This document shows positions 1,808 to 7,611 of a stretch of 64,000 bases of DNA, piece after piece. Below the pieces are notes generated by a model, which was not told the DNA's origin, did not search any database, and saw nothing but the letters and a program-made list of their open reading frames with translations. The stretch comes from Escherichia phage vB_EcoM-G28. The DNA lies in the sequence record NC_054916.1; one strand, 5' to 3'. Position numbers and translations under genes: made by a program. How positions within the stretch are numbered: position 1 is the first letter of the stretch; each line of letters opens with the position of its first letter.

Positions 1808-2086
1808 TCAAAATGTAATTTCTAACCAATCACCATCACGCTGGTCACTATTGACTTTAAAGCTAAATCCTTCTTTTCTCAGCCAATCACCAATTTCTTC
1901 AGTAATCAATTTATCGCGAGCAGTGCAATAATAACTAAAATATGTTTTACCTTGTTCAGCTGCTTTATTAGCAAGTTCCGAAAAATCTTTAATAAAACAC
2001 TCTAGTTTAAACTGTTTACTTTTAAGTGCTTTTTCACGTAATTGATTAGCAAAAGATTCATTTTCATAAAGATCATACTGTTCCAT
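1808..2086 (-). CDS. Hypothetical protein (24.2 position)
   Basis: 92 aa ORF, compact arrangement, synteny with T4 24.2. Confidence 0.55.
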   Translation of the reverse strand: MEQYDLYENESFANQLREKALKSKQFKLECFIKDFSELANKAAEQGKTYFSYYCTARDKLITEEIGDWLRKEGFSFKVNSDQRDGDWLEITF

Positions 2087-2288
2087 TTTTCACCTTTTTA
2101 TTAATATGTCTTTTTCTATAGACAACTTTTTCTCGAGTCTCAAATTTATTTTTAGCAGTCATAGCTCGAGCCCATAATACAGCCACTTCTTTTGCCTGTA
2201 AGTTCAATTCACGAGCAATTTCAATGAATGACTTTCCAGACTCATGAAGAGTAAACACCACAACCTCAGTTCTCATAATCAATCTCAT
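2073..2288 (-). CDS. Hypothetical protein (24.3 position)
   Basis: 71 aa ORF overlapping upstream gene end, synteny. Confidence 0.5.
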   Translation of the reverse strand: MRLIMRTEVVVFTLHESGKSFIEIARELNLQAKEVAVLWARAMTAKNKFETREKVVYRKRHINKKVKNGTV

Positions 2289-2344: not shown

Positions 2345-2371
2345 CAAAATGAAGAAAGGGGCCGAAGCCCC
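2345..2371 (-). terminator. GGGGCCGAAGCCCC hairpin plus U-run downstream of hoc
   Basis: Hairpin 2358-2371 with 4-nt loop; T-rich tract follows on minus strand. Confidence 0.55.
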
Positions 2372-2376
2372 TAAGA

Positions 2377-3795
2377 TTATGGATAGGTATAGATGATACC
2401 AGTTTCTAAAGCAGTTTTATGAATGATGTATCCATTACGCGATTCTTGAACATCAACTTCCGGATAGTCTTTCATCATCTTCTGAAGGGTGTAACGATGC
2501 AGGTAATATTTACTATCTGGATCGTCAGTTTTCCAATCTTTACCTTCTTCAGTCATTTTTTGGATTTCATCCATAACCCACCAACCGCACCAGATGTAAG
2601 CTGAAGTACGGTGTGGAAGAGGATGAACATAAGGCAATTCACCTTCTGGTTCCGGAGCAACTTTATCAGTCACTTGAACTTGACCTGTTGTTTTAACTGT
2701 TTTGCTATCATAATCAGTTGCTGCAACGACAGCAGTAACTTCAATAGTTTGACTTCCAACAGATGAGGTATCGACAGTATATACGTTAGTTGACCCTTCT
2801 ACAGGAGAAGAATCTTTCTTCCACGAGTAAGTAATTTGTGCTTCTTCTGGAGCATCCGTAACATTAGCAGTAAATGTAGCCGAAGCATCTTGCTGAACGT
2901 TAATAGAAGGAGGAGTCAATGTAACCTGTGGATTCATTGTCTTCTTATTAACTGTCAATGATACTTCATTAGAAGTAACTTCCTTTTCATTGTAATTTTC
3001 TGCTGTTACTTGGGCTACGCATTTAATTCTTTTTACTCCACTTGTAGTTGGAGTATAGCTAAATGTAGAGCTAGTTTCTCCACCAACTTGTGAATCATCT
3101 ACATACCACTGATACGTAGCAGATGCTCCATCAGGTTGAGAAGCTAAGGCAGCAGTAAATTGAACTGGGGTTCCAATTACTCCAGCTGAAGGACTAGCAG
3201 GAGTTACTGCCAATGTAGTTGTCTGTGTCTTTTTATTAACAGTCAGTGATACTTCATTAGAAGTAACGGTTTTTTCATCATAATTTGTCGCGGTTACTTG
3301 AGCTACACACTTGATTTTTTTAACTCCGCTTGCGGCAGGAGTGTAATTGAATGTAGCAGAAGTCGCTTCGTCTACAGGAGAACTGTCAACGTACCATTGA
3401 TACGTAGCAGATGCACCTGATGGCTGCGAAGCTAAAGCAGCGGTAAATTTAACAGCTGTTCCAATTACTCCTGCTGGAGGACTATTGGGAGTTACGGCTA
3501 AGGTAGTCGTCTGAGTTTTGTTTTTGACTGTGATAGTTGTAGTAGCTTCTGCTGTTTCAGCATCAGTATCTGGAACTGTGTTTGTTGCAACTACTTTAAT
3601 AGTCTTTTGACCGGCAGGTCCTTTTAGTACATAACTAAAAGTTGCTTCAGCTCCATCCTGTGGAACATCGTCTACAGTCCAAGCATAGGTAATAGTTCCA
3701 CCTCCAGTTTCACCACTGGGTGTAGCAGTAAACTGCTGAGTCTGATCTATAACTCCAGTAGGTGTTTTAGGAGTTATATCAACTGTAAAAGCCAT
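2377..3795 (-). CDS. hoc: Highly immunogenic outer capsid protein Hoc, 472 aa with four Ig-like domains
   Basis: Repeated ~96-aa Ig-like modules, conserved C-terminal capsid-binding region (WCGWWVMDEIQK...), synteny. Confidence 0.9.
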   Translation of the reverse strand: MAFTVDITPKTPTGVIDQTQQFTATPSGETGGGTITYAWTVDDVPQDGAEATFSYVLKGPAGQKTIKVVATNTVPDTDAETAEATTTITVKNKTQTTTLAVTPNSPPAGVIGTAVKFTAALASQPSGASATYQWYVDSSPVDEATSATFNYTPAASGVKKIKCVAQVTATNYDEKTVTSNEVSLTVNKKTQTTTLAVTPASPSAGVIGTPVQFTAALASQPDGASATYQWYVDDSQVGGETSSTFSYTPTTSGVKRIKCVAQVTAENYNEKEVTSNEVSLTVNKKTMNPQVTLTPPSINVQQDASATFTANVTDAPEEAQITYSWKKDSSPVEGSTNVYTVDTSSVGSQTIEVTAVVAATDYDSKTVKTTGQVQVTDKVAPEPEGELPYVHPLPHRTSAYIWCGWWVMDEIQKMTEEGKDWKTDDPDSKYYLHRYTLQKMMKDYPEVDVQESRNGYIIHKTALETGIIYTYP

Positions 3796-3804
3796 AAGTT
3801 ATCC

Positions 3805-4485
3805 TTATTTTAATGTTACGAAAGAAGAATTGCGTGTTTCACGAATTAAAACTGATCCGTCGCGATTAATGTAATAAATTAAGCTAAACAAAGTTTGGTG
3901 TGCTGACGCGTGTTCAAAACTAGTTGGATGAGATTTCCAATCAGGAGTTTCAGCGATCCATTGATAAATCCACCAAGGAACCGTACAGAATCCTGGATTT
4001 TTCCCCAATAATTGAAGATTCGGACTAAAGTTTTCCGGAAGAGTAAATACAGACGGCTTTTCAGATTCAATAATCTCAGCTACAGCTTGTTCAAACTTTT
4101 CTTCAACAAAAGGAGTGTCTTCAATCAAAACATCGGTATTTTCAGGAATTTTATCCGTTTCGACTACTTCAATTTTAATATCAGATTTAACCGGAGAATC
4201 AATCAGAAGTGCTGCTTCTGGATTAACTTCTTCATCGTCATATTTTAATCCCTCTGCAGCATCAGCAGCATTGATTAAGTCTTTAATAGATAACCCATCA
4301 GTCTCTGGCATAGGTTCACTAGCGAGCTTCTGGAGGGCTTCTTCAATATCAACAACGATATTATCAAAAGATTTATTCTTTTTGACCTTTATACCAAACT
4401 GTTCAGCGTATTCAGCTAATTTAGCTTTAGCTTCTTTATTATCATCAAGAGCCTTCAACTCTGCAATATAATCTTTATCTATCAT
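3805..4485 (-). CDS. inh: Inhibitor of prohead protease (Inh)
   Basis: 226 aa acidic protein at the T4 inh position between hoc and segE. Confidence 0.7.
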   Translation of the reverse strand: MIDKDYIAELKALDDNKEAKAKLAEYAEQFGIKVKKNKSFDNIVVDIEEALQKLASEPMPETDGLSIKDLINAADAAEGLKYDDEEVNPEAALLIDSPVKSDIKIEVVETDKIPENTDVLIEDTPFVEEKFEQAVAEIIESEKPSVFTLPENFSPNLQLLGKNPGFCTVPWWIYQWIAETPDWKSHPTSFEHASAHQTLFSLIYYINRDGSVLIRETRNSSFVTLK

Positions 4486-4534: not shown

Positions 4535-5152
4535 ATGTACCACTTTGTATATGAAACAACAAATCTAATAAATGGTAAAAAGTATATAGGAAAACACTCT
4601 ACTGATGACTTGAATGATGGTTACCTTGGTTCCGGTAAGGCAATTCAGCAGGCTATAAAGAAATATGGTGAAAACAATTTTTCTAGAACAATACTAAAAG
4701 AGTTTAAAACTTCCGAAGAAGCGTACATGTATGAAGAAGAAATTATAACTCCTGAAATAATAAAAAGCAAAAATTATTATAATATGAAACCTGGTGGAAT
4801 TGGTGGAATTGTTATGACTACAGAGGTTATAGCAAAGATGAAAGAATCTTCCGCTAAGAGATTTGAAAACTCACCGGGCACGGTATTAGGTACAACTTGT
4901 TACACTAATGGAACTAAAAATATTTTTATTAAACCTGGAGAACTTGTTCCAGAAGGATTTGTAAAAGGGATGGTTCATCCTAATAGAAAGTCCAGAAAAG
5001 GATGTAAAGTCAAACCGACTACCACAGGAACTTTTTGGGTCAATAATGGTGCAATAAATAAATTAATACAACCAGACGGTATTATTCCCGACGGATTTAT
5101 TAAAGGTCGTCTCATGAAAAGAGATTCTAAAGGCAAATTTAGTAAGGCATAA
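4535..5152 (+). CDS. segE: GIY-YIG homing endonuclease SegE
   Basis: 205 aa; N-terminal GIY-YIG-type motif HFVYETTNLINGKKYIGK; position between inh and uvsW. Confidence 0.8.
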   Translation: MYHFVYETTNLINGKKYIGKHSTDDLNDGYLGSGKAIQQAIKKYGENNFSRTILKEFKTSEEAYMYEEEIITPEIIKSKNYYNMKPGGIGGIVMTTEVIAKMKESSAKRFENSPGTVLGTTCYTNGTKNIFIKPGELVPEGFVKGMVHPNRKSRKGCKVKPTTTGTFWVNNGAINKLIQPDGIIPDGFIKGRLMKRDSKGKFSKA

Positions 5153-5154
5153 TT

Positions 5155-6663
5155 ATGGATATTAAAGTACATTTTCACGACTTCAGTCATGTACGCATCG
5201 ATTGTGAAGAGAGCACGTTCCACGAATTAAGAGATTTCTTTTCGTTTGAGGCCGATGGATATAGATTTAACCCTCGCTTCAGATATGGCAACTGGGATGG
5301 ACGAATCCGTCTTTTAGATTATAATCGTCTTCTTCCATTCGGCTTAGTCGGGCAAATTAAAAAGTTCTGTGATAACTTTGGCTATAAAGCCTGGATTGAC
5401 CCACAAATTAACGAAAAAGAAGAATTATCAAGAAAAGATTTTGATGAATGGCTTTCTAAATTAGAAATCTATTCAGGAAATAAAAGAATTGAACCACACT
5501 GGTATCAAAAAGATGCAGTGTTCGAAGGATTAGTTAATCGTCGTAGAATTCTTAATCTTCCAACATCTGCAGGTAAATCTTTAATTCAGGCTCTGCTTGC
5601 GCGATATTATTTGGAAAATTATGAAGGTAAAATTCTTATCATTGTTCCAACAACTGCTCTGACAACTCAGATGGCTGATGACTTTGTTGATTATCGTTTA
5701 TTCAGTCACGCAATGATAAAGAAAATTGGTGGCGGAGCATCAAAAGATGATAAATATAAAAATGATGCACCAGTCGTTGTTGGTACATGGCAAACTGTAG
5801 TAAAACAACCAAAAGAATGGTTCTCACAGTTTGGAATGATGATGAATGATGAATGCCATCTTGCTACAGGAAAAAGTATTTCATCTATCATATCAGGTTT
5901 AAATAACTGCATGTTCAAATTTGGTCTATCTGGTTCATTACGTGACGGCAAAGCCAATATCATGCAGTATGTTGGAATGTTTGGCGAAATATTTAAGCCA
6001 GTAACGACTTCTAAGTTAATGGAAGATGGGCAAGTAACTGAGCTAAAAATTAATAGTATTTTTCTTCGTTATCCTGATGAGTTCACTACTAAATTAAAGG
6101 GAAAAACTTACCAAGAAGAAATAAAAATTATTACTGGGCTCAGTAAAAGAAATAAATGGATAGCTAAATTAGCTATTAAGCTTGCGCAAAAAGATGAAAA
6201 CGCTTTTGTCATGTTTAAACATGTATCACATGGTAAAGCTATTTTCGATTTAATTAAAAATGAATACGATAAAGTTTATTACGTATCAGGGGAAGTTGAT
6301 ACCGAAACCCGCAATATAATGAAAACCTTAGCTGAAAATGGCAAAGGAATAATTATAGTAGCTAGTTATGGTGTATTTTCTACTGGTATTTCAGTTAAAA
6401 ATCTGCATCACGTTGTTTTAGCGCACGGTGTTAAATCAAAAATCATTGTATTACAAACAATCGGTCGTGTATTACGTAAGCATGGTTCTAAGACAATAGC
6501 AACAGTCTGGGATCTTATAGATGACGCGGGCGTAGTTTCTAAATCAAAAACATCTTCTAAAAAATACTCGCATTTAAACTATCTTTTAAAACATGGACTT
6601 GATCGTATTCAGCGTTATGCTGATGAAAAGTTTAATTATGTGATGAAAGAGGTTAAACTTTGA
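5155..6663 (+). CDS. uvsW: UvsW DNA/RNA helicase
   Basis: 502 aa; SF2 helicase motifs (PTSAGKS Walker A, DECH box); synteny. Confidence 0.92.
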   Translation: MDIKVHFHDFSHVRIDCEESTFHELRDFFSFEADGYRFNPRFRYGNWDGRIRLLDYNRLLPFGLVGQIKKFCDNFGYKAWIDPQINEKEELSRKDFDEWLSKLEIYSGNKRIEPHWYQKDAVFEGLVNRRRILNLPTSAGKSLIQALLARYYLENYEGKILIIVPTTALTTQMADDFVDYRLFSHAMIKKIGGGASKDDKYKNDAPVVVGTWQTVVKQPKEWFSQFGMMMNDECHLATGKSISSIISGLNNCMFKFGLSGSLRDGKANIMQYVGMFGEIFKPVTTSKLMEDGQVTELKINSIFLRYPDEFTTKLKGKTYQEEIKIITGLSKRNKWIAKLAIKLAQKDENAFVMFKHVSHGKAIFDLIKNEYDKVYYVSGEVDTETRNIMKTLAENGKGIIIVASYGVFSTGISVKNLHHVVLAHGVKSKIIVLQTIGRVLRKHGSKTIATVWDLIDDAGVVSKSKTSSKKYSHLNYLLKHGLDRIQRYADEKFNYVMKEVKL

Positions 6664-7352
6664 ATTATAAATTAATATATGATAATTTAATTAATAGAGC
6701 CCAGAATCGGGCTCGCCTTAATGGATACACTGAAACACATCATATAATTCCTAGATGTATGGGTGGTACAAATGATAAGTGTAATTTAGTAGAACTAACG
6801 GCTGAAGAACATTTTATAGCCCATAAACTTTTAGCTAAAATTCATCCAAACCATTACGGTATAATTAAAGCTGTTATATGTATGGGGATGAATTCAAATA
6901 CTCATGAAAGACACGTCAATAAATCTTACGCATGGGAACGTCGTAAAATGGCAGAACTTCAATCCGGCGAAGGTAATCCATTTTACGGAAAACACCATAC
7001 GGAAGAACATAAACAATATATGTCAAAACTCATGAAAAGTCGTCCAATTACATGGGGAAATAAAATTAGTAAAACTAAAAGAATGAACCCAACGAAATGG
7101 ACTGAAGAAGCTAAAAGATTACATTCAATCAATCAATCGGGTAAAAATAACGGCATGTATGGAAGGAAACATTCCGCTAAATCTATTCAGAAAATTAAAG
7201 ATAACATGCCAGATAATTCAGGAGCTAATAACCCAGCTGCTAAACCTATAGAAGTAAATGGTGTTAAGTATAAATGTATGAAAGATGCTTCTAAAGCTAC
7301 TGGATTATCAATGTACAAACTAAGAATACTTAGAAAAACAGTTAATTTATAA
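6660..7352 (+). CDS. Free-standing HNH homing endonuclease (mob-like), apparent TTG start overlapping the uvsW stop
   Basis: HNH motif HHIIPRCMGG...NLVELTAEEHFIAH; repeated NUMOD-like GxxHxxExK segments; N-terminus paralogous to the nrdA-nrdB HNH ORF. Confidence 0.75.
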   Translation: MNYKLIYDNLINRAQNRARLNGYTETHHIIPRCMGGTNDKCNLVELTAEEHFIAHKLLAKIHPNHYGIIKAVICMGMNSNTHERHVNKSYAWERRKMAELQSGEGNPFYGKHHTEEHKQYMSKLMKSRPITWGNKISKTKRMNPTKWTEEAKRLHSINQSGKNNGMYGRKHSAKSIQKIKDNMPDNSGANNPAAKPIEVNGVKYKCMKDASKATGLSMYKLRILRKTVNL

Positions 7353-7377
7353 GGGCTTCGGCCCTTTGGAGAAAAAG

Positions 7378-7611
7378 ATGTTACTAGAATTTAAACAATT
7401 TCTTTATGAAGCTTCTATTGATGAATTTATGGGTAAAATTGCCTCTTGTCAAACATTAGAAGGTTTAGAAGAACTTGAAGCTTATTATAAGAAAAGAGTC
7501 AAAGAAACTGAATTAAAAGACACTGATGACATCTCTGTGAGAGATGCTTTGGCAGGAAAAAGAGCTGAATTAGAAGATTCAGACGATGATGAAGTAGAAG
7601 AAAGCTTTTAA
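7378..7611 (+). CDS. UvsW.1-like small acidic protein (76 aa from ATG at 7378)
   Basis: ORF with GGAG Shine-Dalgarno 7 nt upstream; position downstream of uvsW. Confidence 0.6.
   Translation: MLLEFKQFLYEASIDEFMGKIASCQTLEGLEELEAYYKKRVKETELKDTDDISVRDALAGKRAELEDSDDDEVEESF

Follow-up and report, generated by a model that had tools for sequence, protein, structure and literature searches.

How many immunoglobulin-like (Ig-like) domains make up the Hoc fibre of a T4-like phage, and how might a fibre with one domain more than that of T4 have arisen? Each T4 head carries 155 Hoc molecules, one monomer at the centre of every gp23 hexamer, and the protein is dispensable for infectivity. We considered these questions for a gene in the window, by which we mean the whole analysed stretch of 64,000 nucleotides from record NC_054916.1 (Escherichia phage vB_EcoM-G28). 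Over its first 20 kb the best deposited match to the window is 96.7% identical. The gene and its surroundings are as follows.

2377–3795, minus strand: hoc coding sequence, 472 codons plus the stop codon (2377–2379), ATG start, from the list of open reading frames (ORFs)
3805–4485, minus strand: inh (prohead protease inhibitor), directly upstream of hoc, from the ORF list
2073–2288, minus strand: 24.3-like gene (DUF2774; Pfam E = 3.9e-31), downstream of hoc
2357–2372, minus strand: putative terminator-like element (GC hairpin plus T run) immediately 3' of the hoc stop codon, from a consensus scan and a pattern match only
4535–5152, plus strand: segE-like homing-endonuclease gene of the GIY-YIG type (Pfam SegE_GIY-YIG, E = 3e-9), located where T4 has segE, with inh on one side and uvsW on the other
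5155–6663: uvsW, in T4 order

The hoc frame is open across its full length, from ATG to stop codon, and the ORF list bears out the length of 472 aa given in the preliminary description of this DNA. The genes rnlB (794–1798), 24.2, 24.3-like, hoc, inh, segE-like and uvsW follow the order and orientation of T4. The gap between inh and hoc is 9 nt, as in T4, and order and spacing are identical in T4, RB27 and PNJ-9. A comparison with the annotation of T4, RB27, PNJ-9, KpnM6E1 and ES19 places the gene where hoc belongs in the late structural region of Tevenvirinae, between inh and 24.3. The annotated hoc of phage ECO4 is 96.7% identical to it in nucleotides. Because this synteny matches T4 and the C-terminal domain of the product is 99% identical to that of T4 Hoc, we identify 2377–3795, from sequence comparison, as the hoc gene of a Tequatrovirus (T4-like phage). 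The 24.3-like gene, which occupies the T4 24.3 position, has 71 codons, compared with 56 in T4 and 67 in RB27. In the neighbourhood of hoc and inh the minus strand has no T4 late-promoter consensus TATAAATA, whose count across the window is no higher than chance; a sigma-70 scan near hoc returned fewer sites than in shuffles.

Alignment and modelling together place four Ig-like domains, D1, D2a, D2b and D3, on a conserved C-terminal anchor domain.

3520–3795, minus strand: Ig-like domain 1 (D1, aa 1–92), orthologue of T4 D1 at 87% protein identity; all-beta, pLDDT 84–94
3232–3519, minus strand: D2a (aa 93–188), Ig-like, PKD-type; the module that T4 lacks, "A-type" paralog
2944–3231, minus strand: D2b (aa 189–284), Ig-like, PKD-type; orthologue of T4 domain 2, "B-type" paralog
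2662–2943, minus strand: Ig-like domain 3 (D3, aa 285–378), orthologue of T4 D3 at 87% identity
2380–2661, minus strand: C-terminal capsid-binding domain (aa 379–472), alpha/beta; 99% identical to T4 Hoc aa 283–376

An AlphaFold2 model, built with 54 homologues, folds aa 1–378 into four all-beta domains (pLDDT 88–96; block values 84–96), with both D2a and D2b as complete beta sandwiches (pLDDT 92–96). The first Foldseek matches in the PDB are four-Ig arrays (Dscam Ig1–4, Sidekick Ig1–4 and ICAM-5 D1–D4), and the crystal structure of RB49 Hoc (3shs) is also recovered (E = 4.9e-10). The Pfam family PKD (PF00801; gathering threshold 23.5 bits) reaches 39.5 bits and covers two stretches, both within the repeat modules; the better lies at aa 197–267 in D2b, and BiPBP_C matches aa 120–165 in D2a. 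D1 and D3 reach no Pfam cutoff. D1 has no Pfam match of any kind, and D3 has weak sub-threshold matches to Ig_3 and I-set (aa 289–356) as well as weak sequence matches to antibody constant domains. The AlphaFold2 model, Foldseek and Pfam PKD agree on the four Ig-like domains proposed earlier, and the N-terminal part is the linear Ig-like string typical of the Hoc family. The calculated pI of D2a is about 8.0, compared with 4.1–4.8 for the other Ig domains; one contributor is a lysine in place of the glutamate that the first-position consensus has at module position 24.

For the C-terminal domain the model is poor (pLDDT below 50 at aa 381–407 and 444–472). Because AlphaFold confidence is low there, we take its fold from T4 Hoc, 99% identical, whose C-terminal domain has been solved on the capsid (PDB 5vf3, 8t1x, 8t9r). 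The family signature of this region is present, with an ESRNG loop at aa 451–455 and the motifs PYVHPLPHR and GWWVMDE; in T4 Hoc, the ESRNG loop and aromatic residues contact gp23 (PMC10385173). The identity of the binding domain suggests that the window Hoc, too, would bind as one monomer at the gp23 hexamer centre.

T4 Hoc (NC_000866; NP_049793) shares locus, neighbours and capsid-binding residues with the window protein and is 91% identical to it outside one 96-aa gap in T4. This single in-frame module of 96 aa (288 nt) is the sole length difference between the 472-aa protein and the 376-aa Hoc of T4. Whereas T4 has one D2, in the window protein a further D2, of A-type, is placed between D1 and a D2 resembling that of T4; PDB chains of T4 Hoc match the window protein at aa 1–103 and aa 189–472 (E = 2.2e-218). 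The alignment with NC_000866 and published work (PMC10385173) confirm that T4 Hoc has, as the preliminary description stated, 376 aa and three Ig-like domains, so that the alignment proposed as a check did not find the same four-domain architecture in the reference protein. The module is indeed extra with respect to T4; it is unusual only in that comparison, since the 1419-nt allele occurs in about one third of sequenced relatives.

The two central modules form a tandem repeat. Tandem Repeats Finder reports one array at 2938–3513 (period 288, 2.0 copies, 77% matches, score 684), and a separate repeat search pairs 2938–3225 with 3226–3513 at 76% identity. Set in codon register as D2a and D2b with the limits listed above, the copies share 81.3% of their residues and 75.3% of their nucleotides (217/288 bases). 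Shuffling one copy 20,000 times gave 75 matches on average and never more than 109, so chance similarity is excluded. The arrangement is that of a tandem domain duplication: the copies lie head to tail, the period is a multiple of 3, the similarity exceeds chance and both copies are intact. The preliminary description had therefore recognised two consecutive modules of about 96 aa correctly, at about 80% protein identity and related in DNA, and the motifs that it quoted, KTQTTTLAVTP (aa 93 and 189) and EVSLTVN (aa 181 and 277), recur in both. Its reading of domains 2 and 3 as a diverged tandem duplication also holds, with T4 domain 2 as the counterpart of the duplicated unit. The DNA intervals that it assigned, 2941–3240 and 3241–3530, capture the repeat itself but are off by 3–11 nt, and the corresponding module lengths of 300 and 290 nt should each be 288 nt. 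Between-domain identity is 38–40% for D1/D2, 37–41% for D2/D3 and 29% for D1/D3; since all four Ig domains are thus interrelated at 29–41%, D2a and D2b are the most recent layer in a protein built by serial duplication.

How old is this layer? Between D2a and D2b, dS is 1.33 and dN 0.134 (dN/dS 0.10). Silent differences affect 49% of the codons that specify the same amino acid, compared with 11–18% for the orthologous parts of hoc against T4, and the longest identical run, at the 3' border, is 21 nt. Silent divergence near saturation, the low dN/dS, the silent codon differences and the shortness of that run indicate that both copies are old and under purifying selection. By these distances D2a and D2b are long-diverged paralogs of the one domain 2 that T4 Hoc has. 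In protein, D2a is 79% and D2b 92% identical to T4 D2. In silent distance, D2a lies 0.18 from RB27's first module and equally far from the sole D2 of a 376-aa Hoc (P0069); D2b lies 0.19 from the second module of RB27 and likewise from T4 D2. Comparisons of A with B modules among the window, RB27, T4 and P0069 give dS values of 0.7–1.3, mostly at least 0.9.

The two-module gene is widespread. Megablast found hoc matches in 655 phage records, from which 60 were sampled evenly. Both modules are present in 22 of the 60; in 20 of these the gene is full length, at about 1419 nt, and in two the D1 is a different one. Carriers include RB27, Yersinia phage PST, the Shigella phages Sf21, Sf23 and SHFML-11, and ECO4. 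The 1131-nt form accounts for 32 (RB14, RB9 and RB59 among them), a form of about 850 nt for two, and matches to the C-terminal region only for four; the matched span in T2 hoc is 1117 nt. Scaling 22/60 to 655 gives an estimate of about 240 GenBank phage records with both modules. Because about one third of sequenced relatives share it, we regard the four-Ig allele as ordinary. The Hocs of ECO4, RB27, PST, Sf21/Sf23 and SHFML-11 are encoded by the same 1419-nt gene with the same D1-D2a-D2b-D3-C architecture, and these 472-aa proteins differ from that of the window only in an allelic patchwork (ECO4, 97% in protein; RB27 domains, 89–100% identical). In many records the 472-aa allele is annotated simply as Hoc.

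The best 120 cluster representatives at 90% identity in a protein collection, a biased sample, fall into length classes spaced 96 aa.

376–379 aa: 81 representatives, one strong D2-type module
468–472 aa: 30 representatives (29 at 472 aa, one at 468 aa), two strong D2-type modules
567–570 aa: nine representatives, three strong D2-type modules in eight; the 567-aa protein scores two

With the C-terminal domain alone as query, representatives at 50% identity form 136 clusters of 70 to 1473 aa. Judged by length, about 19 would have one N-terminal module, 45 two, 21 three, seven four, three five and 31 six or more, and ten are too short for any. This spread agrees with the strings of 1 to 10 Ig-like domains that Fokine et al. 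2023 reported for Hoc homologues (PMC10385173). Variable Ig-domain number in Hoc homologues is thus already published. In the papers covered, our literature search found no explicit description of a D2-duplicated Hoc of 472 aa or of the polymorphism for one, two or three modules, and this gap is the one modestly new angle.

Other named Hocs show how the family varies. The 568-aa Hocs of the Escherichia phages UGKSEcP1 and UGKSEcP2 (P0001 and P0002) belong to the same family and share the 96-aa D2-type module, borders included, but unlike the window protein they have three such modules, 74–80% identical to one another in P0001, and five Ig domains. In the UGKSEcP1 record the gene for this three-module protein lies at 301–2007 of the extracted locus (L007). 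The 283-aa Hoc of the Mosigvirus PNJ-9 (PMC11853027) is 86% identical to the window protein in D1, 86% in D2 (compared with D2a) and 95% in the C-terminal domain, and has an SLT motif in D2; it differs in having two Ig domains, with one D2 and no D3, and in that MUC2 binding was tested for the PNJ-9 protein itself. In Klebsiella phage KpnM6E1 (Jiaodavirus), a 468-aa Hoc encoded at the same locus after inh (L004, 301–1707) also has four Ig domains, and its C-terminal domain is 83% identical. Its duplicated pair, at positions 3 and 4, is D3-type (77% mutual identity, each 54% to the window D3), so this duplication was independent of the D2 event in Tequatrovirus. In the 471-aa Hoc of phage ES19, two D2-like modules share just 40% identity. 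The patterns in KpnM6E1 and ES19 lead us to think that growth by tandem module duplication is recurrent in the Hoc family. At greater distance, the three N-terminal Ig domains of RB49 Hoc (PDB 3shs) form the same kind of linear Ig string on a Hoc anchor at 15% identity, and the Hoc of Serratia phage Muldoon (1174 aa, 10 Ig domains; PMC10385173) keeps the Ig-string plan with distant sequence and a different domain number.

The order of modules is nearly fixed among alleles: A-type precedes B-type, and in the 568-aa forms a third type comes last. Within the 31 two-module Hocs, modules of the same protein are 56–85% identical (median 79%). Mean identity is 88% between first modules and 86% between second modules, compared with 79.5% between first and second, and among these 31 proteins we found no recent duplicates or concerted evolution. 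In 30 of the 31 the first position is A-type, with B- or C-type modules after it. Among 376-aa Hocs, whose D2 is single, this module is A-like in 48, B-like in 27 (T4 included) and ambiguous in seven. Modules were typed by mean identity to positional sets because mosaic modules leave only 5 of 96 positions that cleanly split A from B types; typing by diagnostic sites was dropped for the same reason. The D2 of PNJ-9 was considered as an outgroup for the A/B split and rejected: with dS of 0.47 to D2a and 0.61 to D2b it stands about midway and is probably mosaic, and so is of no use for rooting.

Mosaicism is also evident in the window gene. Its D1-D2a part is 95% (D1) and 91% (D2a) identical in nucleotides to the A-only P0069, and its D2b-D3 part resembles T4. 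In sliding comparisons with P0069 and T4, patches of 100% identity adjoin patches of 60–70%, and within D2b 48-nt windows are 100% identical to T4 over about 120 nt. Identity to T4 is 96–100% at about 3020–3140 (D2b) and about 2720–2940 (first part of D3), beside patches of 60–75%. Because stretches nearly identical to T4 directly adjoin such patches, we conclude that recombination within hoc has been mosaic below the level of the domain. No linkage of D1 or D3 alleles to architecture class was seen, identical D1 and D3 alleles occurring in all classes, and linkage therefore does not separate an ancient duplication with losses from unequal crossover between alleles.

Taken together, we favour the view, at a probability of roughly 85%, that this is a common long Tequatrovirus hoc allele with four Ig domains, that D2a and D2b are old constrained paralogs, and that the two-module array had a single old origin. 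The single origin is argued from the conserved module order in the biased sample of the best 120 representatives at 90% identity, with modules that are themselves mosaic. The array would have a single origin that long predates the divergence of today's Tequatrovirus hoc alleles, and would now circulate alongside one-module (376 aa) and three-module (568 aa) alleles. Homologous recombination would swap domain-sized and smaller patches between alleles, and modules are likely to be gained and lost by unequal exchange at the conserved borders KTQTTTLAVTP and VTSNEVSLTVNKK.

Two alternatives can be set aside as highly improbable. A recent duplication private to the lineage of the NC_054916.1 phage would account for the clean 288-nt insertion relative to the T4 reference. 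It is refuted by the dS of 1.33 between copies that share an identical run of at most 21 nt, by the fact that each copy is far closer to its positional counterpart in RB27 (dS 0.18–0.19) than to its neighbour, and by the estimated 240 or so GenBank phage records with both modules. Assembly of tandem repeats can go wrong, so that the repeat might also be an artefact, or one copy a decaying, non-functional remnant. This too is refuted: the frame is open throughout, dN/dS is 0.10, both modules are modelled as complete beta sandwiches (pLDDT 92–96) and many independent genomes share the arrangement. Read confusion between the copies is impossible, because they differ at 25% of bases.

A more serious rival, though one that we consider unlikely, is that the four-Ig allele came from unequal crossing-over, during mixed infection, between long-diverged A-type and B-type alleles with three Ig domains, with no tandem duplication in situ; A and B would then be old alleles, not old paralogs. 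In its favour, A and B each occur as the sole D2 of 376-aa Hocs at the silent distance of orthologues. The window gene has the form of a 5' part like the A-only P0069 joined to a 3' part like the B-only T4, which fits such an exchange as well as it fits a single old array, and the conserved borders offer a 21-nt identical run suitable for it. Counter to this, the order is almost invariant, with A first in 30 of 31, whereas random recurrence should also give B-A, A-A and B-B; D1 and D3 alleles have no class-level linkage to architecture; and the 568-aa forms would require a third diverged allele. The single old array is thus the reading that we retain. As a tentative and rather doubtful extension of it, hoc may be a cassette locus, in which an ancient ordered array of A, B and C became polymorphic for one, two or three copies, short alleles retained either A or B, and the variation was maintained by selection, diversifying or balancing, that acted on the length of the fibre, on its valency in glycan binding or on escape from antibodies. 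If so, the window allele would be one state of a 283/376/472/568-aa length series that tunes the sticking of capsids to mucus or bacterial surfaces.

What might the extra module do? The Hoc fibre, which the phage can do without, stands out from the centre of each hexamer; that of T4, with four domains, is about 180 Å long (PMC10385173). This corresponds to about 4.5 nm per domain and leads us to predict roughly 22 nm for the window Hoc. By analogy, the module would add one Ig unit, or about 4–5 nm, to the fibre, and might provide a second adhesive surface that includes a second copy of S-L-T. The effects on fibre length and adhesion suggested in the preliminary description are plausible on this analogy. 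Binding to mucin glycans (the BAM model) has been shown for the Hocs of T4, PNJ-6 and PNJ-9 (PMC11150434, PMC11853027). In the two-Ig Hoc of PNJ-9, S183-L184-T185 in D2 is required for binding of MUC2 fucose (PMC11853027); the window Hoc has SLT twice, at aa 183–185 and 279–281. In the three-Ig Hoc of PNJ-6, studied by the same group, MUC2 was bound by D1 and not D2 (PMC11150434). The relevance of SLT is uncertain, since its role comes from one study of a two-Ig Hoc and since D1, not D2, of PNJ-6 bound MUC2. Our literature search found no mucin-binding or other experiment on any 472-aa Hoc.

The window Hoc is real, correctly read, and a widespread, ordinary allele of low novelty. The gene by itself matters little, being one more copy of a Hoc allele already in hundreds of records. 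The three Ig domains of T4 should not be taken as a general rule for Tequatrovirus, about one third of sequenced relatives having four. Natural Hocs of 283, 376, 472 and 568 aa with near-identical capsid anchors are a ready-made series that could be used to test fibre length or domain valency against mucus adherence, bacterial-surface binding and immunogenicity. For display platforms based on T4 Hoc, a longer native spacer may be useful.

A further difference from T4 lies beside uvsW, where a 230-aa ORF (6660–7352, plus strand) stands between uvsW and a uvsW.1-like ORF (7366–7611). Pfam recognises two NUMOD3 motifs in it (E = 7.6e-14), and its N-terminus is HNH-like. T4 has no counterpart at this place, and its annotated uvsW, of 1764 nt, spans roughly uvsW plus uvsW.1 uninterrupted. 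The ORF is probably a free-standing homing endonuclease insertion.
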